DNA of 63,994 nt, the filler included, from Basidiobolus ranarum (taxonomy: Eukaryota): the NCBI GenBank assembly GCA_040143965.1. It is 3 parts of 3 records of this genome, joined end to end, with 100 filler letters (N's around TTAATTAATTAA, not from the genome) between each part and the next. Parts side by side here need not be neighbours in the genome. Positions count along the whole stretch, not along the records: positions 1 to 22,448 come from JASJQH010007061.1; 2 more parts are not named here. One strand, written 5' to 3'. Below, piece by piece: positions 4,784 to 62,548 of this stretch. Under the pieces are notes generated by a model. It was not told the DNA's origin, ran no database searches, and saw nothing but the letters and a program-made list of their open reading frames with translations. Position 1 is the stretch's first letter. Every line of letters starts with the position of its first letter. A program made the translations under genes and the position numbers.

Positions 4784-5520
4784 GATTGACTTAATAGGAC
4801 TCCGGGCTAAGATTTTCTTTAGTTGTTTTCACAAAGCGTCAAAGACTGTCGGATATGTGTAAGTTAGTATCTAAGTAACAAACGAAGTACTTTTATAATG
4901 GCCAATGAAGAGTTTAATCTAAAGATGAAAAAAAGCAATAGTGGATATAAACCTTTTACTGCAAATGGTAAACCACTGTGTTTAGATTTTGTTGAGTAAA
5001 ATGGCGAGCTAAAGTTTGTGGTAGTCCAAGATTTGTATAGGGAGTAAGGAGCTAACCTGGAGTTTGCAACTATATATATCCCGAAGAGAAGCGTCTGAGA
5101 GGAGCAATAAAATCAGATTGATCAGGGTTTCTCATTTGGATAGATTTTCGAATAATATGTAGAAAAGCAAATACGATAATTGTTATCCCTTTGGCCATCA
5201 ATGTTCATAAATATGGATAATGCCGATGGGACATATAAGGTAGGAGTGATCAAGCATTTTTGCGGAAGCTAAGCAAATATATTTATGAAAAAGAGAAGTA
5301 AACGGTCCATCAATGGAATTGATAGTTTATGGATGTATCTAGATCTCTTTTATGTAATACTAATTTCATGATTTTGTATACATGTATAAAGGAGAGTTAG
5401 GTCCATTCAAAGATACTAGCCATGTTCAAATAAAATGAGATTTAAGTATCAACATTGGTCAAGCTATAAAAGATTTTTGTACCTTCGTGATTTGATGTTG
5501 TGTTTCAGAATAAAAGAAGT

Positions 5521-5692
5521 GGAGATATGGTCAACGCATCGGCACAATTTCCCACAGACCAAACAAATGGTTACTGGTAGTTGGTTCCTAATTGTTGACT
5601 TTCCATCTAGAGCACTTAAGACAACTAAATAGCTGTCATGGCAGTGACTTGGCCGTAAGATACCTAATCACCGTGGCATGTGCACATGATCC
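5521..5692 (-). ncRNA. Putative structured ncRNA of unknown family, copy 1
   Basis: Identical to 7552-7724 and to the reverse complement of 17784-17956 except for a 1-nt indel in a hairpin loop. TATA box ~35 nt upstream on the minus strand; its stems need G-U pairs on this strand. Confidence 0.55.
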
Positions 5693-6440
5693 AACTTGTT
5701 CTTCAGTCCCTAACCCTGAATTTATATTTATATTACACTTATGGGATTTGTCATATTTTCTCTGCGTATCACTAATTTTAACGCTTCTGGAGATTTTAAC
5801 AAACCAAATTTCCTATTTATCTAACATAATCTGGCAAAGTCGAATTAAACCAATAAGAAATACCCTAACTCGTAGTCAATGAAAATCAGAAACTCACTAT
5901 TTCAGATATATCACAAACTTGCACTATCACCATCTATCATGTATTCTATTTAGAAAGTTTAATGGCATTAGAGATATTACGTAAAAGTCCAATATTAACC
6001 ACGGTAAAGGCAATTACGAATGGTATATTATGTTTGGATACTTAGCAGTACTAGAATACATTATTGCTTACTAATTAAGGTAGGATATCTTATTTGAATA
6101 TAAATACATACAGAAATAAGTTTTTATCAGTTTATACCATTCAAATAACTTATTGTGGCATACTTATTCCACCATATATATAGCATCTCCGATGATTTTG
6201 AAGGGGATATGGTACCATGTGAAATACCTGAACGCAATTGTAATTCTCATCGAAACTCCATGATCCTCAAGAGATGAGACATTGTTCAAGAACTACTAAT
6301 CCAAAGAGAATCTTAGTAAGAAAGAGATTTTAAATCGTTAGAAGAGTGGAGAAGGAGCAACCGGTTCAGGAGCTGTATTGATTATATGATGATTACCGAA
6401 CAAGTTAAGAGTAATGCAAAGCGTTGATACCCCTGATACA

Positions 6441-6502: not shown

Positions 6503-6875
6503 TGAAGTTGACCTTGAGATTATGATCAATCATTCTACTGCTCATAACTTACATTTATAACGAAAAATTGAATGATATTGAACCAAGACCATTCAAAGTA
6601 ATATAACATGGTAACAAACCAATGAAATGGAAGTCCGGATATTAATCCAGCAGGTACACTATGTTCATGAGGTAAAAGCTCTATTTCCGGTGTTTGGCTT
6701 CAATCAGAGTAACATAGATTTGAAATTTTGGATATCTGAAGTTTAATATTTCGCTAGATTATGAAGAAGTAGAGATATTGTTGTAGTCATTCAAAAAGGA
6801 AGAGATTTTGGATGAATTCGGATAGGATATCTGAGTAAAATAATGAAATAAAGGGAAGCTCTAATACAACAAAAA

Positions 6876-6947
6876 GGGCTCAACCGGGAATTGAACCCGG
6901 GACCTCCACGACCCGAACGAGGAATCATACGACTAGACCATTGAGCC
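6876..6947 (-). tRNA. tRNA-Pro(CGG), intronless
   Basis: Cloverleaf with acceptor GGCTCAA/TTGAGCC, anticodon loop TT-CGG-GT and T-arm CCGGG-TTCAATT-CCCGG, followed by T5. Confidence 0.9.
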
Positions 6948-7551
6948 CTGGTTGATTGTTGAAGATTTTGGAAATGGTCATTTTCCTTTCAAGGTTTAGT
7001 TAACCCCTGTTATTTACCTATATGAGTATTCAATTATAATGATTGCCTAAAATGGATTAAAGAGAAATTCAGAATACTCACTCAATGCATTCAGTTCACT
7101 AGTTCCTACATAAGCTTGGTATTTGGCGATATCCTTGGAACACAATGTACAAAGTAACTATATCCATTTCTACAAAACTTAAATAACTAGGAATGCATAA
7201 TCATTAAACGATCCTCATCCGTAAAGAGTGGAGATGCTTTTGAGTATTAAGCCAAGTATCAATAACATAAACAGAGAATGATTGGTGTATTTGAAATAGT
7301 CCTGATGTTACTTGGATAACTAAATATATCTTAAATGTTTTCAGCACACAGCACCATGCTTGGTATAGCTATCTGACTGGCTGTTGGAATCCAATGTTAG
7401 CATAATAACTATCATGAACACCTACTGACATTGGTCCGATCGCGAGCGTAACATTTATCAAAGATTCACTAACAATAGGTAAATGTCCGATCCTAATAGA
7501 TTTCAACAATTCAGTAGTAAAAATTCCAATGTGTTTTAGAATAAAAGAAGT

Positions 7552-7724
7552 GGAGATATGGTCAACGCATCGGCACAATTTCCCACAGACCAAACAAATG
7601 GTTACTGGTAGTTGGTTCCTAATTGTTGACTTTCCATCTAGAGCACTTAAGACAACTAAAATAGCTGTCATGGCAGTGACTTGGCCGTAAGATACCTAAT
7701 CACCGTGGCATGTGCACATGATCC
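7552..7724 (-). ncRNA. Putative structured ncRNA of unknown family, copy 2
   Basis: Exact reverse complement of 17784-17956. TATAAA ~35 nt upstream and T-rich tail downstream. Confidence 0.55.
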
Positions 7725-8804
7725 AAATTATTCATCCGTTACTAGGTGCCACTTTATACTGTCAAGTGTTCATGGGATTTCGAAGCAATTTAAGATATTT
7801 TAATTTAATGAAGATAAACACTACATATGGATTATACTGTTTCTTCCTGAATAACGCAGTCTTGAACTATTCTTGTATTGGAAGCATTGCCACTCACCAT
7901 ATATCATACTGCTCGATATGGAAAGAGGGTGAGTAGATACTAACACTTGCAATTACCAGGTAGCCTATACATACTGACGATGGCAATGCTGAGCTTATTC
8001 AAAAGTTGAGGGAGGGAATTATTGATTCAAGAATGGTTTGGCCTTGGGGTGTTATATATGTCTCCACACTTGTATGCTTATGTCGTCAGTATTGTCAATG
8101 ATTGATCGGAAACTATATAAAGTTGCATGTATGCACTGGTTGTTATCTCAACCTCAGAAATTGTGACCAAAAACATAGAAAACATCTGGAACATAGATGT
8201 GTTTCGATTATGGTTTGGGCTTCGGAACCAGTGATGTGCAATACCTGAATAGTGATAATGGAGTGATTGTGTCAAGACAAAACTTCCACAATCCAACCAA
8301 AAAATAAGCGGATGATCAGGTTGAATGCACAGTGTATGGCTAGTACAATGTCCACAATGAACCTCTCCCTTGCTTGCCTTGACATATCAGCTACATTTGT
8401 AAATCTTTTTGTAGCTGCAGATCACGAAAACGAAAAACATGGGATTTACATCATCAATCTATCAATACCTAGTAACAAACTATACATGGAGAACGATTGG
8501 CTGGGCAGCTATATCTAGCATATATATCTAGCATACATAGATAATGATTAGCAGAGAAACAGAGAGCTGGGAAAGAACAATGTTTAGATTGCCGATGCGA
8601 CTGTTAAGGAGATTATCTGAATGTCTGTTATTTTCTGTTTTTCCGTGAATAATTTTGTTACGCTTAATGTTTGACCTTTATATTCTAGATTCTCTATTTT
8701 ATTCCTAACAGAGGATATATAAGGTAAAGTGGGTCATGAGTGTTCTAAACTTATTAGAAATTGCTTCTACTCTCGATATATCTTCTCAATTTCGCTTACC
8801 AATA

Positions 8805-11800
8805 ATGGACTCTGCATCTGTTGCTTTCTGCCTTGTTCAACCCGCCCTTAACACTATCCACGACATTGGTGACTTTAGTAATAGCTCTATTAATGTAGTC
8901 TCCACCTCCGTTGACTGCCAATACGAACCAAATGGCTTACCTTTGAGCAAATTAACTCAGCTTTGTGATCAAATCGTGGAATTACCCTGCTCTTACGAAA
9001 TCAAACCCACTAACCTAAATAAATGTACCACTGAAGAGCAAGGTTCTAACGTTCGTTACGTGATCCTCTTGTCAGGCCCGTCCCCTCAACTTATTGTTAC
9101 TCAGCGCGCTCTTCTGGAAAGATATCCCTCGGAGGTAGCTAGATATTGCCTCTTCATTTAGAATCGTCACTAATTGTTGCTTCTATTTTCAGGCGGGAGT
9201 AACCTTAAAGATTCATTGTGACGGTAATTTGTTTGAAGGCAACGAGTGGAAGCCAGAAATCCAGGCTAAAATTGATGATATCATTCGAGATGAAGAAGTT
9301 ATAATCAACTTGATCCCAACAAGTACCCAAGTATTTTCTGATACCGAGAAAGAGCAAGCCGTAGTTAATCTATCGATCCAGGGAAACCCCGGTGCTGTCG
9401 AGAGAGCCAAACAGGCGATTTTACGCTTGGAGCAAACTCATGTAAGAGATTTGAATTGTATTTGGATGACCCTAACCCTTACTCACTAATCCCATGTACT
9501 TTCCGCATTATAAAGCACAACGTGCATTGTGAAGAACTTAAAGTTGATGCACATCTGTTGGGAATTGTTTCCGGGCCTAATAGCTCCTACATCAGATCAA
9601 TTGAAAAAGAAACCCGGACCAGAATTATAGTTCCGAAATCATACGGAAATCTTTTGGAAACTAACTCCATTCCAACCCCTCCCAGAAGCATTCTTGTACT
9701 AGGTGACCAAAGTCAAGTAGAGAAAGCGACCCAAATGCTTAATAACTCCATATCTAAAGCGGTATAGTCATGAGCGTCATCATTATCACCTACAGATATA
9801 TCATTCTGACATGGTCATATTTTCGAATGTAATAATAGAATATGGACTTGATCAAGAGACACATTACTCTTCAGCCACGTAAGCTTGACTGGTTACCCGT
9901 TCTTAAATACTCAGAACTGATTGATACTATGGAAGTCAATGGTAAGTGTTGGTACAGATATCATTCAACTAGATGTCAATATTCATTTCTTTGGTAGGTA
10001 CATCCATAATATTTCCTGGTGTCAAATCGGCTCATCCATATGTCATTGTCTATGGCCAGAATGAAGTCGAGGTTTCACGAACTACCAAAACAATCATGCA
10101 AATGGTAAGAATATTTACAGGCATTTACAGTGCACCATAACCATACAGTTTCTGATAATTGCATCTTATGATAGACCAGTGGCATCTTCTCTGGATGGCT
10201 TTGGTTAGAGAATAACATTCCTAGCAGTCAAGCTATTCAATTGCCTTCTCAAGAAGAAACTGAGCAATTGATGAATCGCATTTGTGTGACTTCTGGTGCT
10301 GAGGTAGCCTTTCGCAATTGTTGCTTTGAAGTATGTGGAGAGCCTGATCAGCTTAAAACCGCATTTAGACTGATTGGCAACGAATATTCGTTCCAGGTAA
10401 GAAGCACTCCTTTCTAAGCTTTGATCATCAATATACTAAAAAGAACATCTCTTAGCTCTTTCAACGGGAAACCAAATTCCAAGTGGAATTGGCTACTGAG
10501 CATAGAGAGTTTATTAGCGGGAAAAAGAATGGAAAGATTAACAAAATCATGAAAGTGACTAATACCAAAATCGGATTTGAAAATCTAAATGAATGCAACT
10601 TCTTTATTAACATCTACAGTCCAGAGTGCAGTAAAACACTCGAGGGACTAAAACTTCTTCAGGTTAGCTAGTAATTCAAGAGATTACTATGAAATCTACT
10701 AAACGATTTATGGATATTTTAGGAGGAACTTCCAGCTGAGATTTCTTTCTATGTTCCTGAAAACTACCATAAGCGCATCATTGGTGTGGGTGGAAAAAAT
10801 ATTCAACGGATTATGAAGCAATTCGGTGTCTATGTGAAATTCTCGACAGCTGAAGAGTTTGCAGCCCAAGGAGCCTGCATTGAGTCGGGCGATAACGTCG
10901 TGGCGAGAACACCCGCCAAGAATATCAATAACCTTACCAATTTTAAAAAGACTATCATAGATATGGTTGAAAGCAAGGTATATTTTCGATTTCACTATTT
11001 TGCCAGAATGATTGATTTACTCATCTTGTATCATAATAGGATCAAGAATGGGTGCTCAACTCTAACGATTATCATTCGTCTGGATTTGTGTCTGAGCCTT
11101 TGCCAATGTCCAAGAGCAACTTTACACGCAAAGATTCAGGATTTTCGTATTCTTCGTTATCAAATAATGATGCGTATGAACCCACTATGCATGTATCGCA
11201 AAGACTACAGGATCTTGCATTGAATGAAAGTCGTGTTCGTTATCCATCCTCGGCTAATTTGCACCTTGCTGTCGATTCTGAGGCATTCAAGTTTTTGGTG
11301 AAAAAGATCAAACACGAGCTCAATATTATCTTGATATCGTCTCCACGCGACTATAATGACCTTCCATCTATGAGAAATAATATGGTTGATCAAGGATTTC
11401 ATACTTTTGTTATGAGATATGAAACAAGAGAGGCTAGCCTAATACCACGAGCTCAACAGATGTTACAAGATTTCCTTGCTGCGAATCATGTGAGTTTCTA
11501 CAAATGAATACATGCTCACTATTGTTGCTGATAAGTTATCACAGGCTCCTTTGACTAGTGTCGGCTTTGGTACTGATGACCCTTACCGTCTTCCTGGTAG
11601 ACATATCCCAGTTTCTGCCCCAGGTAAAGATTATACCAAGATATGTATAGGTGTATCCAGACTGACGCAAATAACACAGGGCATATGCGCGACAATCGAA
11701 GCTATTCATTGTTTGACCACAGATCCACTGGCTCATTTTTCGAACCCACAGTACAGGTAATATTATGAAGTAATTTTGGAGATTACGGTATTGAGTTTAA

Positions 11801-17188: not shown

Positions 17189-17529
17189 ATCGAACAGTAT
17201 ACACTGAACAAAGGCAAACAAACTCGTTCAAGCTTTACGAAAGAGAAAACCAAATATATGCCCAAAGAGTAAACAATACCAGAAATATATACACATTTAA
17301 TTTGTGATCTACATTTCCATATTTTGAGGTTTATCTATATTCTTCTAATAAACGAAATTGCGGTTGATCGCCTAAACATCGAACTTTAACCTGAGTCTAT
17401 CTATCAAAAATCAGGTTTCGTAAATTATCATTGGACTTAATCGCTTGGATAGGTATCTTGATAGCAATAAAAGTTTACTAGAACAAAAGAAAATAATGTT
17501 GATTTCCAATAATCTAATCAAACAACCAG

Positions 17530-17601
17530 GGCTCAATGGTCTAGTCGTATGATTCCTCGTTCGGGTCGTGGAGGTCCCGGGTTCAATTCCCGGTTGAGCC
17601 C
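17530..17601 (+). tRNA. tRNA-Pro(CGG), identical to the 6876-6947 copy
   Basis: Same cloverleaf as 6876-6947, with a T5 terminator at ~17606. Confidence 0.9.
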
Positions 17602-17783
17602 TCACTTTTTGCATCATTATAATCACGACTCTATCTCAATATTAGTATATCTCTCCACTAATGATTGATCTTACCATCTGTATTTCCTGCCAAAATATCT
17701 TTTGTTACTAAGAAATTGCACAACTTCCCATCCTTGACATCTGGTAGTATAAAATAGCAGCTAGAGTAACGGATGAACAAATT

Positions 17784-17956
17784 GGATCATGTGCACATGC
17801 CACGGTGATTAGGTATCTTACGGCCAAGTCACTGCCATGACAGCTATTTTAGTTGTCTTAAGTGCTCTAGATGGAAAGTCAACAATTAGGAACCAACTAC
17901 CAGTAACCATTTGTTTGGTCTGTGGGAAATTGTGCCGATGCGTTGACCATATCTCC
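17784..17956 (+). ncRNA. Putative structured ncRNA of unknown family, copy 3
   Basis: TATAAAA at ~17748. 5'/3' end pairing GGAtcATGTG/CATATcTCC, several internal stems, then CTTCTTTT. Lies 180 nt downstream of tRNA-Pro on the same strand. Confidence 0.55.
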
Positions 17957-18248
17957 ACTTCTTTTATTCTAAAACACATTGGAATTTTTACTATTAAATA
18001 ATAACATTGAAATATACAATATTGCTCTGAAACAACCACACATAATGTTTCTATCTATCCAACATAACGGAATCATGAAGATAAATATAACAAGAGCCTA
18101 TGATTACTGGTATTGCTTTATTATATTCTTGGTTAGTGAAATTAAAACTTCCATAGGACAGTTGAAAAAATTCTATAATTCTAATGATATCCGTTGCGTC
18201 AAGAAACCAATCAAAATAAGCCCCTCCTGATCATTAGGTGGGCATAAT

Positions 18249-22448: not shown

Positions 22449-22548
22449 NNNNNNNNNNNNNNNNNNNNNNNNNNNNNNNNNNNNNNNNNNNNTTAATTAA
22501 TTAANNNNNNNNNNNNNNNNNNNNNNNNNNNNNNNNNNNNNNNNNNNN
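22449..22548. other. Assembly gap with artificial TTAATTAATTAA six-frame-stop linker
   Basis: N-run, TTAATTAATTAA, N-run; the same construct occurs at 44984-45083. Confidence 0.95.
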
Positions 22549-22550
22549 GT

Positions 22551-22835
22551 GGCTCAGGTGGTGAATATGGAGGTAACGGCGGTGGAAGTGGCGGAAAATA
22601 CGGTGGTGGTGGTGGATCAGGCGGTGACTATGGAGGTAATGGTGGTGGAAGTGGCGGAAAATACAGTGGTGGCGGTGGTGGATCAGGTGGCGACTATGGA
22701 GGTAATGGTGGTGGATCAGGTAGTGATTACGGAGGCAACGGCGGTGGAAGCGGCGGAAAATACGGTGGTGGTGGATCAGGCGGCGACTATAGAGGCAATG
22801 GTGGTGGAAGCGGTGGATCAGCCTATAAATACTAG
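22551..22835 (+). CDS. C-terminal fragment of a Gly/Tyr-rich repetitive protein; 5' part lies in the gap
   Basis: A frame missing from the ORF track reads GSGGEY-GGNGGGSGGKY-GGGGGSGGDY-GGNGGGSGGKY...GGSAYKY*. Synonymous third-position variation favours this frame; an AT-rich 3' UTR follows. Confidence 0.75.
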   Translation, partial: GSGGEYGGNGGGSGGKYGGGGGSGGDYGGNGGGSGGKYSGGGGGSGGDYGGNGGGSGSDYGGNGGGSGGKYGGGGSGGDYRGNGGGSGGSAYKY

Positions 22836-35656: not shown

Positions 35657-38101
35657 TTACGGAGAGTTTGGGGATGGGGGCTGGACATTTGGAAATGGGA
35701 TATTAGGGTCTACATCGTTAGAAGATGCAAGGGGTTTGGATTTCTTAGCTTTTAGAGATTTCAATTCAGTCTTCAGATGTTTGAGTAATTTTCTTTCCGC
35801 ACGACGAATCTCCTTTTCTTCGTTCATGAAGTTCCATTGAGTCTCCTTTGAAGTGAGTTGATTTTGTAATTTCCATTTGGCTATTTCCAAAGTAGCATTA
35901 ATCCATTCATTTCTATAATTCCTTTTCTCCAATTTACATCTTTCGTATTGTTGTTGGATGTGATTCCTATCATGTTTCAACTTTTCAATTTCTTTTTGAA
36001 GTTGTGAGGAATGTTGTTTACTAACTTCTAGATGGACTTGATTTTCTTTTACCATTCCAGAGTATTTACTACATTGTTGCTCGAGTTCTCGGATATGTTT
36101 CTCGGATTTCTGAAGGTGCCTCTTCAAATTTCCTATCTCCTCTTTCAGTGCATTCATTTGTGAATCTTTGGTTGGATCAACTGCTGGATGGTGGCCACGT
36201 TCACCCTCTACATTCCAATCTTTGGCCAAGTGAGAGTCGGGTGTGGTACCTTTGGATTGCAGGGGTGGTTTGGGAATTCTGTGGAGATTCTCGTGAACTA
36301 TGTCTGTCTGTTCGTCACGACGAGATGGTGAGTGCTGGGATGAGATTACCAGAGGATCAAGTTGACCATCATTTCTCGAAGGAACCACCCTTTCTAGATG
36401 CATATCCTCTCGGTGAGGGATTGTGAAGCCTATAGGTGTAGACAAGTTCGTGATGAAACCAACATCTGAGATTGATAACAACACACGTAAGCTGGCGACC
36501 GAAGATTTGGTGGACTGTTGAATAACTGGTACGGTGAAATTGAAAGAATCCGAAAATCGAGCTTCAGTATTTAAGCTAGCATTTCGCTCCTGTAATAATG
36601 GATTGAAATCCACAATACCAATCCCTAATGAACGAATCTCCTCCGATTCCTGGTATTTACCCAGGAGTTTGATATACAACGGTGTAGAGAGAAGTTTCTC
36701 CAGCAGCCGATTGGGAAAGGAGAAGAATTCCATGGTGTAAAATGAGTTGGGTAAGAATACTTCTGTATTGGGAGGTATCTCGATACTAGGTTCGGTGTAA
36801 ACGGTTTTCTTGGTGTTTAGCCAATCATAATTATATTCTAGGTAGGCGTTCTCGAGATGAGTATTATTTGATGATATGGAAACGAGGTGGATAGTTATTA
36901 AATAATGGTCTAATGGTTGTCCCCCATTGACTACGAACGGATGGAGAATATCTTTCTCGATCAACGATAGACTACATCCGATGTATGGTTCGTCAGGTTC
37001 GTCCAATCTGTCTGCTCCCGAAACTGTTTCTATACCGTACAATCCCTCAAAGAAATGAGGTTCACCAGAGGCCACTTGAAATAGGTCACTAATTGACACC
37101 CTGGCACATCCCATGATTCGTGCATCTGACTCTTGATAAAGATAAATAGCAACTAAAGGACAATTGGCGAAATACTCTTGAATCTCATGCAAACTCGATC
37201 GAAGATTCACGAAGATACGTGTAGGTGACCAGGAAGAAGAGTCGGTGGATGGAGAGAATTTTTCTGTGATGATATCTCTATCGAATAATTTGAATTGAAA
37301 ATAAAATCGGGATGCACTCGAAACTCTATACCGAGTGAATAGGTTTTGCCAGAGGGTAATTCCGAAATAAAAGATATATTCGACAGTTCCATCCCCTATA
37401 CGATAAAACCTGTCTCCTGCAAGAGCTTCATGTGTTATTTTAGAAGAGGGTTTGACCGTGTTAGCTGGCGCCAGATAATGATTGATATTTAGTAATTTGG
37501 AAGCTATTCGCTCTGATATAGGTGTTTCTATAGGCCTACGTTCAGGTGTTGGCATTGGTGCACTGGGTAGGGTAGGAATCTTTGCTTTTGAAAACTCCTG
37601 TTTAGGCCCAGCTTGAAACAGAATACGAAGCTCAGGCCTTATTCCATTTTGTCCTTGACCTTTCTTGACATTTACCAAGGAGAACCACTTTGGTTTAGGT
37701 TCAGAGGTAGGACTTTGAACCTGTCGTAAATCCAATACTATAAAACCAATCTCTTCTACGCTATTCTTCTCTTTACTAAAGGAAAAACAAGTGAGCTTCA
37801 CCGTAGCTTTCTGAGTACGAAGTAGGTGTAGTGTTTTATGCTCTAAAGTCCATTCAAGTTCTGTATCCCAGAGGGGTCTCGAAGTTTGCTCGATTCTTTC
37901 GGTACTTAGTAATTCATTGTAGAATTTCCCTTCAACAAAGATGTAAGTCCCTCGTTTACGCAGAAATTGTCGACCTATTTTCTGAAAGTTAGTAAAGTAG
38001 CTCGAGTGAGTAATGGTAATCCTTTAACTTAACCCAAACAGGACTTGGAACTTTACAAACTCACCTTCTAATATGGTTGCCAAAACAGTGCACAAAACCA
38101 T
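35657..38101 (-). CDS. CEP120: CEP120-like centriolar protein (three C2 domains plus coiled coil), 2 exons
   Basis: Exons 38065-38101 and 35657-37974 give MVLCTVLATILEGRQF...VEGKF...LSTE...P.WDTELEW......LH..R.Q...VKLTCF...EEIGFIVLDLR...PKWFSL, which follows the CEP120 C2A domain as I recall it. C-terminal coiled coil. Confidence 0.8.
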
Positions 38102-43990: not shown

Positions 43991-44580
43991 GAGTCTTTTG
44001 ACCATCTCGTTGCCGACATTAAATACTAACAAGCAAGAAAAAGATCCATTCGACAACTAATATAGACTTATGAAACCAGATGTAGCTGATAATACCACCT
44101 ATCTCTCTATCCACTCAATCACGAGGACGCCCACGCGCACAAGCACAATCGCTTTGATACCCAACTCTATAGTGACTTCACATTTCTCGTCAATTTGAAT
44201 TCTTTTTTTTGTAGTGTTACCTCTGTCTCTCTTTCATCACTGACTCACTCTCTATTTTTGCCAAACCTTGTATACATAATATTTACCCCCCCCCAATCTA
44301 TCTCGTGTGTCAAGTCCACATCGGTGTATTTCTTTCACATCTGATTCTTGTTCTTTTTTAACACTTTGCCATGGATCATTAGAGATATGACCACTAAGAT
44401 ATCAATAAAGTATAATCAATATAAAGATTCGGGATATTTTGAGAGTAACTCTCTCATAACAACCCTGACCAGTAATATAACACCCACAACTCAATGTATA
44501 CATAGTGTATACACCCAGCATTTAAGTATGTAAGTTGATTCTATATATAAAAATCACCCTTTTATAACAGATGCTTAAAC

Positions 44581-44983
44581 TGTTGAAGTATTTTGGGAGT
44601 TTGTTGAAAGTGGTTTGGAGAACTAGAAGAATTGTTGGTTTTCACTTATTGTTCATTGAGTAGAAAGTTGACATTTATAGTTTTGTAAAGAGGTAAACAA
44701 AAAATGTATAGAATGTGTTAAGAAAGATCCCAGGAACATGTGTGCTAAGTTTGGAGTCTCTAGCACAAGTTTGAAAAATCTATATATTTGAGAACTTCCA
44801 AGTTGGTGTCAATATTCTAAGTAAATTCCTCTTGAGGTGATATCTTAGTTCAGTAAGAAATAACCAAATACTTGTTGAAATTAGCATTGCCTAAACACCT
44901 ATATAGTCATATATAGCTTAGTACTTAGTTATCTCATAATTCACTAAGATATTATCAATTATTCTGAATCAGAATTTACTTTA
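44581..44983. mobile_element. Two copia-family LTR pieces in opposite orientation (44581-44872 minus; 44873 to gap plus)
   Basis: TGTTGAAGTATT... matches 22261 onward; TGTTGAAATTAGCATTGCC at 44873 is the LTR 5' end. Confidence 0.85.
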
Positions 44984-45083
44984 NNNNNNNNNNNNNNNNN
45001 NNNNNNNNNNNNNNNNNNNNNNNNNNNTTAATTAATTAANNNNNNNNNNNNNNNNNNNNNNNNNNNNNNNNNNNNNNNNNNNN
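44984..45083. other. Assembly gap with TTAATTAATTAA linker
   Basis: N-runs flanking the linker. Confidence 0.95.
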
Positions 45084-45539
45084 TACTTTATATGGAAGTC
45101 ATATTCTTTGGAACATTTCATGAAATCTAACCAATCATGTCAAGCCCCACATAGTGTATTTCTACCCAGACCTTCTATGGAAGGTCACCTGATCATCCTT
45201 ACATCATCCCTACATCATCCCTACATCATCCCTCTTTGTGTTGGTCCTTGTAGTCCCCAACACCCCAACACTTGAACTTGCCACAGTATATTCCCTATTC
45301 CACTTATTATGTTTCACCATGCAATATCTATATAAGCCCCATGTATTCCTTGATCAGACTGAGGGCTGATCAATGCCAGTTATCAATAAAGATTCTTGCC
45401 AAAGTATCTTCCCTGTCCAGTCTTGTCTTGTCTTGTCTTGTCTTGTCTTGTCTTGTCTTGTGGTCTACACCCAAGTACTCTCCTGCTTTATAGCCTCTTG
45501 TTGTTGTTTCAAGTCCTTGTGCAGTTCCTTATTGTGACA
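45084..45539 (+). mobile_element. Probable LTR of a second family, containing (CTTGT)8 and ~3 ACATCATCCCT repeats
   Basis: TATATAA at ~45329, AATAAA at ~45385, terminus TGTGACA, no CpG. Confidence 0.5.
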
Positions 45540-45654
45540 AAAGAAGCAATATGGTTGAGAAAACTCTCAACAGATTGAGGCTATTCTCAAAATTTGGCAA
45601 TTACAATATGTATCCTGCAGAAACAGTTCTAAGATTCTGCACTTGACTATTTCT

Positions 45655-46059
45655 TGTTGAAATTGACTTTGCCTCAACACCTATATAGTCATATATTGCT
45701 TAATACTTAGTTATCTTATATTACACTAATGTATTATCCCTTTTTTTCAATTGGAACTTACTTAGAATATATTTGCCAACTTAGAAGCTCTCAGATATAT
45801 AGATTTTTTCAAACTTGTGCTGGAAGCCCAATACTTGAAACACATGTTCCTGGGACCTTTCTTATTCTCCAAAACACTTTTAACTGGCTCCCAAATACTT
45901 TAATACCATGGACCTTCCTAAACACATTCTACTTGTTAGTTTGTTTATATTTGTACAATATATTAATGTCTACTGGATACTCAATAAATCAACAAGTGAA
46001 AATCACAAACTTTTCTATTTCTCCAAACCACATCCAACAGGCTCCAAAATATTATAACA
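45655..46059 (+). mobile_element. Solo LTR with 5-bp target-site duplication TTTCT
   Basis: TGTTG...AACA, flanked by TTTCT at 45650-45654 and 46060-46064; carries an internal ~45-bp extra copy of its own 3' end. Confidence 0.88.
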
Positions 46060-46064
46060 TTTCT

Positions 46065-48800
46065 TTGGTTTGGTAAAGTTTAACACTTCTTATCTACAAA
46101 TCTCTTGAATATAACAAAATGCAAAAACCTGAAGTATTGGAGATATATATATTGAGAAGAATCTTGAAAAGATTTCTGCCTGATAACTACTGGCAACATA
46201 GGGAGTGGTTTGTGGGTATTGTTAATATACTCTTATGAGTTCAACTTATGTTGGTACATCTTGGGCAGATTCAGCTACAGTGTAAGGATTTTGTAATTGG
46301 ATACAAAAAACCTTAATATGGGCTTAAAGAATATAGACTGAATACACAATGTCATTCAATACATTCCTTGCTGCATCTTTTGCAATGCTTAGATAATATA
46401 AGCCCTTGCTATATATTCCAGGAGTTCCCAATGGAGTGTATCTCAAGTGAAATGATGCTTCTTGTGAGATCACCAGTACTATAGTATGCTGATCTAATTG
46501 ACAATGTAACAGCAAAATCAGTGATGGATGTAATGTAATGGGTTCAGGGGGCTCCAGACTGTGTTTACCTTTTAACAAAGGGCTCTCTTCAATGTTCCCA
46601 TGGGTTTTTGCATTGTTTGACCACAATAACAGCAATAAAATTCCATCTATTGACACAGAGTAAGTCTCTTTATTAATCAAACTATGTTGTTCTTTTGATA
46701 ATTGGATAGCATTTCTAGGAAAGCTGCAGGACAGATTTCTTGTTGAGATAGAGCAATATATTCAATATTATTGTTTTGGCAATGGGGTAATCTGTTCAAG
46801 CAATAACACTACTGCCTGTGGCAGAACAACTGTTGATTGCAAGTTTGGGATATTTTGCCTGAGTGCTTTATGAAAATTTGCTAGCATCCAAGAGCTTATT
46901 CTCATTGTCAATGGTACCAAGAGTCAGCTATTTGCCAGGTGTCAGTGCTATTCTTAGTTTCAGATGTTTAGCAATTCTTCCACCATTAGTTTGCTAGCAA
47001 AGCATATTGATGTTGTTGAGTTATGTCTGATCAGTCATGTATATGCATATGAAGAGGCCAAACACAACAAGATTCTTATATTTTTTGATTCTCATTATGG
47101 CTGATATACAAAGCCTATAGCATCTACATAAAGGCATGCATATTAACTTGAATTCCTATAGCACTAAACCCAGTAATTTGCCATTTGAAAATTGGTTTTT
47201 TCCAAAAGTTGTAGGAAGTTGAATAATGCATGCCCAATATTGAGGATTGATATTTTGGCATGTGTGAATACCATCACAATACTATTAGGAAGCTGCTATT
47301 GTATCATCAAAATCACTGCAGAATACAAGCTAACAATATTGGGACAGTCCTCTGATGGTTTTGTGCTCCAGGAGGGTGCATCCAATCTGGATCAAATTGA
47401 TTTTATACTTGTTTGGGTTAGAAACACATTTTGAGAGGTTCAAATGAGGATATATATCAAGACATAATTACTCTACTACTGGTTTTCCCAGTAAGGACTA
47501 CCAAAAGACTTAATGGTTATTCTAATATTCATAGGTAGATTATAAACTGATGGCTAAATATTAACTCATATACAGTCTGATAGTAATATACATAAGTTCA
47601 AGCCTCACCCTATCCTCAATCTCCAACATATTAATGGCAATTCATTGTTGGATCTTAATCTTTATGCAACATCTTGGTTAACTTTATTTATGCTCTATAT
47701 ACAAGGAAAAGGAAAGCAATCTATATATACCCCTATATTCCTATTAGGAGTGCCTGTATATCTATACAATGAGTATGTCTTATTACCAACATTTATCTAT
47801 TATATCTGATTGCACAACCTCCTGAATATCTCAAACAATGTATTTACTTCTCTGCTATATAAATCATAATATTCTTGTCAGAATAAAGCTACTGGAACAG
47901 TATCATAAGTTACTTCTAATATATAAAATATACCCCCTTTATGTCCAGATCCTCCAATATTTAAGCTTAACTGATGAATTCCAGTCTATCCAAGAACCAA
48001 GAGATATAAGTTACAAGGGGGATAATAGAAGTATCTTTGAATTTGATTAAGATATGATTATGATCAGAAAAAGAGCCAATAACATCATTACTTGTTATGA
48101 GATACCAGCTTAAATGATCTAATTAGTAATATATTTAATGGAACTTATCTCCCTTGGTTTAAATTTCCTTATAATCTTACTAAGCACAACTCTTGGATAT
48201 AGTAACAGGTAAGATACTATTAGATATTTGTAATGGATATGAAGGAGATGTCAAAAAGTGGATAAAGTGTATATCATATAAGTTCTATGCCATAGACTCT
48301 AAATGCAACCTAAGAGACATTCAATATCATATACTCTGTTTAAGATGTTCAATCAAGACCATTCTCAACAATATAAATTATGACATCATCACCCCATTCT
48401 CTGTACCTTTGAACAATAACTTCCTCAATTATGGATGTAACAACTCATCCTCATTCTATTGAAACACCTCAAGCTGCGATATCTTCCAATGTTGAGAAGG
48501 CTCAAATTAAATCTCCCTACACAGTTACTGCTGAGAAAATTATTGAAGATAGAGTAGATGTTGAATATGTTCATGAGAGACAATGGGTATAAAGTAGATA
48601 AGGTTACTAATGCTATGAGATAGGTATTTCTGTCAAGTATACTATTGCTAAGATGCATTCTTACTATATGTATAGCAAACTGTAAACATAATACTGATAG
48701 TACATATTATGGAACAAACATAGTCTAAAATATATATTACATATTTCAGGCAGTATACTAATTATATATCTTAAAATACACCACTTATAGAATATATTAT
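46065..48800. mobile_element. Highly degenerate repeat/transposon relic, family not determinable
   Basis: AT-rich, essentially CpG-free, no credible ORF, adjacent to LTRs. Confidence 0.5.
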
Positions 48801-61512: not shown

Positions 61513-62548
61513 TTAATCTTCTTGAGATTCCAAGAATTCGATGGCATCGAGGGCAGCTTTACAACCAGAGCCGGCAGCGGTAATAGCCTGTCTGTAACGA
61601 CGATCTTGGACATCACCGGCGGCAAAGACACCATCAACGTTGGTGTGTGTGGATCCAGGGGTAACCTTGATATAACCATCAGTATCAAGATCAATAACTC
61701 CCTTGAAGGCATCGGTGTTAGGGGTGTGACCGATAGCATAGAATAGACCGTTCACTTCCAATTCACGAGCCTCTTGGGTCTGGGTATCCTTAAGAGTCAA
61801 GCTTCTCAACAAGCTACCATCACCCTTGGCTTCAACAGGAGCGGTGTTCCAGAGAATTTCGACCTTAGGATGCTTCATGAGACGGTTGGCCATGATGGTG
61901 GAGGCACGAAGTTTATCACGTCTAACCAAAACGTAAACCTTGGAGGCATATTTGGTCAAGAACATAGCTTCTTCAGCAGCAGAGTCACCACCACCAACGA
62001 CAGCCAAGGGCTTGTTTCTGAAAATGGGGACAGCTCCATCGCAGACAGCGCAGGCTGAGATACCATTTTGCCAGTAAACATCTTCTCCGGGAAGGAAGAG
62101 ACGTCTGGCAGTGGCACCGGTGGCAATAATGATAGAGTCAGCAGTATCGGGCTCATCAGTCTCAGAATCAGCTCCTTCTCTCCAGATTTTGAAAGGACGA
62201 GCAGAGAAATCGACACGAGTGATGGTCTCGGTAATGATTTCAGTACCGAACTTCTCGGATTGCTTACGGAAGTTATCCATCATATCTGGGCCAGTAATAC
62301 CTTCAGGGAAACCAGGGAAGTTTTCGACTTCAGTGGTGGTAGTCAATTGACCACCAGGAGCAATACCACCGGCAAGCATACCTTCGAACATAACAGGCTC
62401 CAAGTTAGCTCTTGAAGTGTAAATGGCAGCAGTGTGACCAGCAGGCCCAGAACCGATAATGATCTAGTAATAAATTAATTGATGAGTAACGACTTCGAAA
62501 AACCCAAGTTCATAAAGTGTGTATAGAACTTACAACGCGTGCGTGCAT
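61513..62548 (-). CDS. TRR1: Thioredoxin reductase (low-Mr fungal type), 2 exons
   Basis: [32 protein letters not shown] redox motif, [14 protein letters not shown]. Confidence 0.97.

Follow-up and report, generated by a model that had tools for sequence, protein, structure and literature searches.

What is the block of sequence that recurs three times within a short genomic region of Basidiobolus ranarum: does it specify a small non-coding RNA, and, if so, does this RNA belong to one of the classes already described? The original prediction had portrayed it as an unrecognized, structured RNA gene in three near-identical copies, each endowed with a TATA box and a pseudoknot topology resembling that of RNase P and RNase MRP. 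We examined these propositions in the window, i.e., the whole stretch of DNA analysed (63,994 nt, filler included), and by comparison with collections of RNA families, proteins, genomes and metagenomes.

A conserved core in diverged flanks

A BLAST search with the core against the 64-kb window recovered exactly three full copies of a 177-nt block, all located within 12.3 kb. Copy 3 occupies positions 17784-17960 of the + strand (annotated as 17784-17956; 100% BLAST identity), copy 2 lies on the - strand (7724-7548, annotated as 7552-7724) and is identical to copy 3, and copy 1, also on the - strand (5692-5517, annotated as 5521-5692), is 99.4% identical, the sole difference in the core being the loss of 1 nt from the loop of predicted hairpin 17839-17857. 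The claim of three cores separated only by a 1-nt indel in a loop is thus borne out over the full 177 nt. The remaining matches to the core in the window span only 12-26 nt, with BLAST E-values of at least 0.11.

The limits of the conserved block are sharp. Identity among all three copies spans positions 17782-17965 and extends to 17978 with a single mismatch. The pairwise alignments reach somewhat further, covering 254 nt at 96.5% identity for copies 2 and 3 and 210 nt at 97.6% for copies 1 and 3, and all but one of the differences between the copies are located in the flanks. The near flanks are ~88% identical (nine differences in 77 nt between copies 2 and 3, four in 33 nt between copies 1 and 3); at 15-40 nt from the core they become unalignable, in agreement with the rapid decay described originally, and outside the aligned blocks nothing aligns. 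Such an abrupt boundary between core and flank conservation is a pattern typical of multicopy RNA genes.

The same three copies can be read without invoking any RNA gene, as repeated or selfish DNA that arose by recent copying or gene conversion or that represents a SINE-like element, in which case the TATA box and the T-run would be incidental. The occurrence of only three nearly identical copies in so short an interval fits recent local copying, and gene conversion or recent copying of a functionless block could also yield three identical copies. On this reading, however, it is difficult to see why the core should be perfect while the sequence a few tens of nucleotides away can no longer be aligned. 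Moreover, the copies reside in two intergenic stretches, which also carry two identical tRNA-Pro(CGG) genes, and their arrangement relative to these tRNA genes differs from copy to copy, which likewise argues against this reading. Hallmarks of mobile DNA were sought in the 90-nt flanks of each copy, where no direct repeat of at least 7 nt and no inverted repeat of at least 8 nt links the two sides, as expected from the earlier remark that terminal inverted repeats and target site duplications are missing; nor did we find an A-rich tail after the copies. With no target site duplication, terminal repeat or A-tail, and with three copies in the window, the element does not have the makings of a SINE or another transposable element, and we consider the repeat reading unlikely. 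One argument raised against it in the original prediction, that CpG dinucleotides are retained in the block and largely lost from local transposons, turned out to be weak: the core contains four CpGs, with an observed/expected ratio of 0.47, which is below the window mean of 0.70. In the region 44001-48000 this ratio is 0.11.

Putative promoter motifs, T-run and orientation

Each copy is preceded by two motifs at nearly constant positions, which are counted here from the core's first G. The TATAAA motif starts at -36 in copy 3 (17748-17753, + strand) and at -34 in copy 2 (7753-7758, - strand), and copy 1 carries two tandem TATAAA motifs (5721-5732, - strand), which start at -40 and -34, so that the previously noted spacing of 34-36 nt is found in all copies. 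Further upstream, the hexamer TCCCAT starts at -58 in copy 3 (17726-17731, + strand), at -53 in copy 2 (7772-7777, - strand) and at -54 in copy 1 (5741-5746, - strand). The hexamer did not figure in the original prediction.

In copy 1, both TATAAA and TCCCAT fall outside the block that can still be aligned and have thus been kept in an otherwise diverged flank. Their fixed distances from the core point to selection on a promoter, which is not what would be expected of a repeat with incidental motifs. The combination is also rare: TCCCAT followed by TATAAA after a spacer of 8-22 nt has five matches at four sites in the 64 kb, against 0.46 expected, and five matches were reached in none of 100 shuffles. 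Three of the four sites stand upstream of the copies. The fourth (9490-9514) lies inside an apparent intron of a coding gene, with nothing conserved downstream, and was discarded as a further candidate.

On the core's other side, CTTCTTTT is present downstream of each copy, and ACTTCTTTT follows the core in all three, which confirms the existence of a common downstream motif. It includes a run of four Ts, a putative terminator for RNA polymerase (Pol) III, situated directly after the core in copy 3 (17962-17965, + strand) and at the equivalent positions in copy 2 (7543-7546, - strand) and copy 1 (5512-5515, - strand). Four Ts are perhaps too short to act as a Pol III terminator in fungi, and beyond them ~13 further nucleotides are common to all three copies, with one mismatch, so that the 3' end of the RNA can be placed only tentatively. 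In the opposite orientation, only three Ts follow copies 1 and 2. The strand originally proposed as the sense strand (+ for copy 3) is thereby upheld, with a change of argument: the T-run, T4 against T3, is a better guide to orientation than the five G-U pairs on which the assignment had been based. Obvious internal promoter boxes are absent from the block. By sequence, then, all three copies display the components of an snRNA-type (type 3) promoter gene, namely an upstream element, a TATA box and a T-run.

A candidate family of small RNA genes

In our assessment, these features make it somewhat probable (roughly 0.58) that the three loci constitute a small family of genes that specify a non-coding RNA of ~175-195 nt in Basidiobolus. 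Each gene would be served by an external snRNA-type promoter, with TCCCAT ~55 nt and the TATA box ~35 nt upstream; transcription would begin at or just before the conserved TTGGATC and would terminate at the T4 run downstream of the core or shortly beyond it. Given the combination of an snRNA-type promoter with an oligo-T end, the transcript is probably produced by Pol III, a gene of the Pol II snRNA type being a possible alternative. The predicted product would open with a short palindrome at the 5' end, followed by two stable hairpins and a less tightly folded 3' domain, and would stand outside all Rfam families. Its most likely role would be that of an RNA scaffold or guide in an abundant nuclear ribonucleoprotein (RNP), as suggested by the perfect conservation of the full length in several copies, which is reminiscent of snRNAs, and by the proximity of the genes to tRNA genes. 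What survives of the earlier interpretation is, accordingly, a small, multicopy, unclassified gene of the RNA type, with a TATA box, a T-run and no transposon hallmarks; its likening to RNase P and MRP does not (see below).

Searches for known families and relatives

The family assignment was addressed with Rfam 15 at increasing permissiveness. At the gathering score, only tRNAs (the two tRNA-Pro genes) were detected in the whole window. With permissive filters and E ≤ 10, nothing was found on the element, either in 801 nt around it or in a 5.5-kb stretch spanning copies 1 and 2, and when the 221-nt sequence was searched alone at the same threshold, the sole row returned was an 8-bit, 15-nt fragment of the Fungi_SRP model on the opposite strand, which we regard as noise. 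The models that produced no match include those of RNase P, RNase MRP, snRNAs, U3, 7SL, snoRNAs and ribozymes. The search recommended along with the original prediction thus bears out its description of the gene as unrecognized: apart from this fragment, no described family matched, the threshold of E ≤ 10 applied to the 221 nt included.

Several classes were, in addition, considered by inspection against their characteristic motifs. Telomerase RNA was rejected because CCCTAA was not seen in any permutation, nor was a convincing template repeat, the presence of three copies being a further contrary point. For C/D and H/ACA snoRNAs, no Rfam snoRNA model matches and the ends lack a TGATGA/CTGA pair; an ACA does occur at 17974-17978, ~33 nt from the internal loop, whereas the ACA box of H/ACA RNAs is found at 14-16 nt from it. 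U3, 7SK, Y, vault and spliced-leader RNAs were dismissed in the same manner, as were hammerhead ribozymes and tRNA-derived SINEs; no family model matches for any of them.

Nor did relatives come to light in the sequence collections scanned. When metagenome contigs were searched for exact matches to a 21-mer and to a 23-mer from the core, none was returned, and a scan of viral contigs was likewise empty. A single match among prokaryotic genomes, in a Desulfamplus metagenome-assembled genome, was set aside as a chance 21-mer with unrelated flanks. In the literature on Basidiobolus snRNAs and on Pol III transcription and non-coding RNAs of early-diverging fungi, we found no description of such an RNA. 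We regard the RNA as a credible candidate for a new family. It is conceivable, with a chance somewhat below even, that it is the first representative of a class not yet described, that is, an abundant small RNA of the snRNA type with its own RNP and function, unrelated to the Rfam families.

Predicted folding and the comparison with RNase P and MRP

The minimum-free-energy fold comprises a weak 5' hairpin formed by a 12-nt palindrome, two good hairpins and one long, interrupted 3' hairpin. The first of the good hairpins (17803-17834, + strand) contains 8 + 3 bp interrupted by an A/A internal loop and capped by an apical loop of 8 nt (z = -2.6; 2 of 200 shuffles as stable), and the second (17839-17857, + strand) consists of 8 bp closed by a U-rich loop (z = -5.3; 0 of 200), both scores being flattered by the selection of these pieces after the fold had been seen. 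The 3' domain (17860-17960, + strand), which includes a GTCAAC/GTTGAC helix, does not exceed shuffles in stability (z = -0.8). The loops of the predicted hairpins read TGCA, ATCTTACG, TTT and TTTGTT. The + strand, at -48.9 kcal/mol, folds better than the - strand, at -43.1 kcal/mol (z = -1.16 versus -0.38). Hence, the description of the RNA as structured holds for the two hairpins and fails for the molecule as a whole, since 28 of 200 shuffles are at least as stable as the whole RNA and a longer version fares no better (z = -1.08). An overall fold within the range of shuffles is also in keeping with the repeat reading.

All 43 base pairs drawn by hand in the original prediction are standard pairs, five of them G-U, so that each of the proposed RNase P/MRP-style helices can form; however, G17793 had been placed in two helices at once. 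All 43 pairs are invariant across the three copies, and covariation consequently provides no evidence either way.

These pairings had been taken to indicate a minimal RNase P/MRP-like RNA without a specificity domain, in which a P1-like stem closes the ends, a P2-like helix crosses P4 and a CR-I-like motif, GGAAAGTC, marks the 5' strand of P4. Some observations favour this reading. The 8-mer GGAAAGTC arose in only 31 of 20,000 shuffles, and the GTCAAC within it pairs with GTTGAC beside the 3' end, in a helix that is also part of the minimum-free-energy fold. The promoter would be compatible as well, given that type-3 promoters drive MRP RNA genes in some lineages (PMC8287931). Nevertheless, the Rfam models of nuclear, bacterial and archaeal RNase P and of RNase MRP did not match at E ≤ 10, whether 801 nt or 221 nt were searched. 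The crossing arrangement itself was scored in dinucleotide shuffles as a terminal stem, a helix next to the 5' strand of that stem and a further, crossing helix with its 3' strand adjoining the terminal stem; 313 of 1000 shuffles attained at least the 15 pairs observed, and the topology is therefore not beyond what chance produces. As to the rarity of GGAAAGTC, this motif was picked with hindsight, out of the many with which a reader is familiar.

The predicted fold does not favour the proposed architecture either, for in it an internal AGATGG segment takes up the 3' strand of the proposed closing stem, and the P2-like strand is occupied by the palindrome. In P4 of RNase P and MRP the U of the GTC is bulged, whereas here it is paired. 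Between the P4-like strands there is only one short hairpin (17897-17925) and no specificity domain with the T-loops of CR-II and CR-III; the original prediction had itself seen no clear specificity domain. Three copies would be unusual for genes of these RNAs and count against such an identity. In a recent structural and phylogenetic study (PMC13184271), the features of MRP RNA conserved from protists to metazoans are given as a GARAR pentaloop on P8, a 3-bp P5 beside CR-I and a six-nucleotide CR-IV, and for RNase P RNA an eight-nucleotide CR-IV and T-loops in CR-II/III are reported. No GARAR pentaloop occurs among the predicted hairpin loops, and neither a 3-bp P5 nor a 6-nt CR-IV could be placed by inspection.

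The resemblance to RNase P and MRP RNAs thus amounts to an A-rich GGAAAGTC ahead of a long-range helix with its partner near the 3' end, to ends that can pair and to a crossing helix that can be drawn. Against this stand the missing covariance-model match, a topology within chance, the number of copies and the lack of an S-domain, a GARAR pentaloop and a recognisable CR-IV or P5. We consider a minimal RNase P/MRP-like RNA highly improbable, and we would attach just as little weight to the special case of the proposed new class in which a real P4-like pseudoknot would form the core of an RNase P/MRP-type ribozyme devoid of a specificity domain.

A divergent snRNA, a peptide or a spliced leader?

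If the loci are RNA genes, they might still belong to a known class that has diverged beyond the reach of Rfam, such as an Sm-class snRNA (U4atac, U5 or U7-like) or another RNA of the snRNA type, with a role in splicing or 3'-end processing. A multicopy gene of snRNA-type architecture is what this explanation calls for, and a motif resembling an Sm site, ATTTGTTTGG, is present at 17909-17918. Stretch 17841-17860 may resemble the pairing and Sm region of vertebrate U7, which is a lead and no more. U7 is, however, much shorter than the ~175 nt seen here. The Sm-like motif forms the apical loop of a predicted hairpin instead of the single strand between stems expected of an Sm-class snRNA, which would also bear a trimethylguanosine cap and bind Sm proteins, and the k-turn with tandem G-A pairs that U4 or U4atac would require is not apparent in the hairpins by inspection. 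None of the Rfam 15 models of U1, U2, U4, U5, U6, U11, U12, U4atac, U6atac and U7 matched the 221 nt at E ≤ 10.

The phylogenetic context leaves some room for such an RNA. According to PMC11347168, U4atac has not been confidently found in zoopagomycotes, and early-diverging fungi are reported in a preprint (bioRxiv 10.64898/2026.10.14.759114) to retain SLBP and histone stem-loops but to have little of the U7 machinery. However, the putative divergent U4atac of Basidiobolus meristosporus mentioned in the former source was recovered by its model at a lower threshold (PMC11347168), which the RNA described here was not. On balance, we regard a divergent snRNA as unlikely.

Two further possibilities would assign the locus to messenger or leader RNA. 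A 54-codon open reading frame that starts at 17837 could encode a small secreted peptide, and a spliced-leader RNA could donate its 5' 30 nt at AG/GTATCT. The frame has a hydrophobic start and is open in copies 2 and 3, and GTATCT, which is similar to a 5' splice site, is accompanied by the Sm-like motif. In copy 1, however, a frameshift leads to a stop once four codons have been read; the frame ends beyond the block shared with copy 1, and the limits of conservation bear no relation to its own. Protein collections yielded no relative of the 54-aa product or of that of a 78-aa frame on the - strand. The putative leader, for its part, would contain two AUGs, and trans-splicing is not known to occur in fungi. 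Both possibilities appear very unlikely, and a small non-coding RNA gene family is the reading that we favour.

Parallels in gene design and possible significance

The proposed genes would not be out of place among those with type-3 promoters. According to PMC8287931, promoters composed of an upstream sequence element (USE) and a TATA box drive many small RNAs, and genes of this design (U6, 7SK, MRP, plant U3, and plant and ciliate telomerase RNA) share with the loci described here an upstream element and a TATA box, situated ~55 and ~30-35 nt before the RNA, an oligo-T directly after it, a lack of obvious internal boxes and a short, multicopy gene. In contrast to U6, 7SK, MRP, U3 and telomerase RNA, the Basidiobolus RNA matches no family and contains no CCCTAA permutation, and, unlike in described type-3 genes, its upstream element, a putative site for SNAPc, is a conserved hexamer only.

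A second parallel is offered by the Class I RNAs of Dictyostelium, which, according to PMC7919456, are a lineage-restricted group with a C-rich DUSE ~60 nt before the start and a T-run after the gene. The RNA of Basidiobolus is similarly an apparently lineage-restricted, multicopy non-coding RNA with a C-rich motif ~55-60 nt upstream and a T-run downstream, and its 5' and 3' ends can pair, as those of Class I RNAs can (PMC7919456). It differs from them in the lack of their 11-nt motif, in the presence of a TATA box and in the supergroup to which the organism belongs. It is also much longer, Class I RNAs measuring 42-65 nt. We propose both parallels as analogies in gene design and make no claim of homology.

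The inventories of non-coding RNAs in early-diverging fungi, the assemblage to which Basidiobolus belongs, depend almost entirely on Rfam models derived from animals, plants and yeasts. Should the loci indeed be RNA genes, they would add to these inventories a new RNP, from the fungus with the richest minor-intron set known among fungi; should the RNA instead prove to be a divergent version of one considered 'missing', a gap in the evolutionary record of the corresponding machinery would be closed. The module formed by TCCCAT and the TATA box could also be used to search the lineage for further snRNA-type genes, a use for which the USE in plants and the DUSE in Dictyostelium set a precedent.

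As for the surroundings of the loci, the window is eukaryotic, and its long open frames specify a tricalbin-like C2 protein, a Cep120-like protein, an amino-acid permease, an HROB-like protein and a thioredoxin reductase. The last of these places the window in the genus Basidiobolus, for it shares 100% identity with a protein named as that of Basidiobolus ranarum and 96% with its counterpart in B. meristosporus.

Sequence features of the RNA copies and their surroundings

The core of the candidate small RNA contains, close to its 5′ end, a perfect 12-nt palindrome, CATGTGCACATG (17789-17800, + strand, in copy 3), which is present in all three RNA copies and could form a weak hairpin, mediate an RNA dimer contact or serve as a binding site at the DNA level. 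Outside the window, 21 nt of the core are matched exactly in a contig of a Desulfamplus metagenome-assembled genome (L001, 2987-3007, − strand), where the flanks are unrelated; by our own estimate, about 0.3 such 21-nt matches would be expected by chance in the collection of prokaryote genomes scanned.

The putative promoter arrangement of the RNA copies, TCCCAT-N-TATAAA, has a fourth match at 9490-9514 (+) in a coding gene, where it falls within an apparent short intron (GTAAGA ... TAAAG). No conserved sequence follows this match, which is therefore probably due to chance. Two identical tRNA-Pro(CGG) genes, the likeness of which extends ~27 nt upstream (95% over 102 nt), are arranged differently with respect to the RNA copies: the one at 17502-17602 (+) is located 180 nt upstream of copy 3, whereas that at 6875-6975 (−) is found ~600 nt downstream of copy 2.

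Other features of the window

A domain of the Cep120 type (PF12416, E = 5.5e-10) lies in a 788-aa open frame (35657-38023, −) that also resembles ciliary or centriolar C2 proteins in its features, which is noteworthy given that the fungus is non-flagellated. Basidiobolus retains a centriole-like nucleus-associated organelle. The thioredoxin reductase encoded at 61513-62463 (−) has numerous paralogues in Basidiobolus, with identities of 100, 96, 92, 89, 84, 83, 81, 78 and 73% to proteins named B. ranarum or B. meristosporus, a series consistent with a highly duplicated genome.

The AT-rich stretch 44001-48000 (GC 0.335), with a CpG observed/expected ratio of 0.11 compared to ~0.7 elsewhere, is probably a transposon that has decayed or been methylated or mutated. 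It contains simple repeats, including (GTCTT)x8 at 45420-45461, and N runs (44984-45027 and 45040-45083) that coincide with the filler joining two records. Similarly, the N runs at 22449-22492 and 22505-22548 coincide with filler between parts and are directly followed by a Gly-rich-looking tandem repeat array (22549-22808) with periods of 33, 63 and 99 nt.
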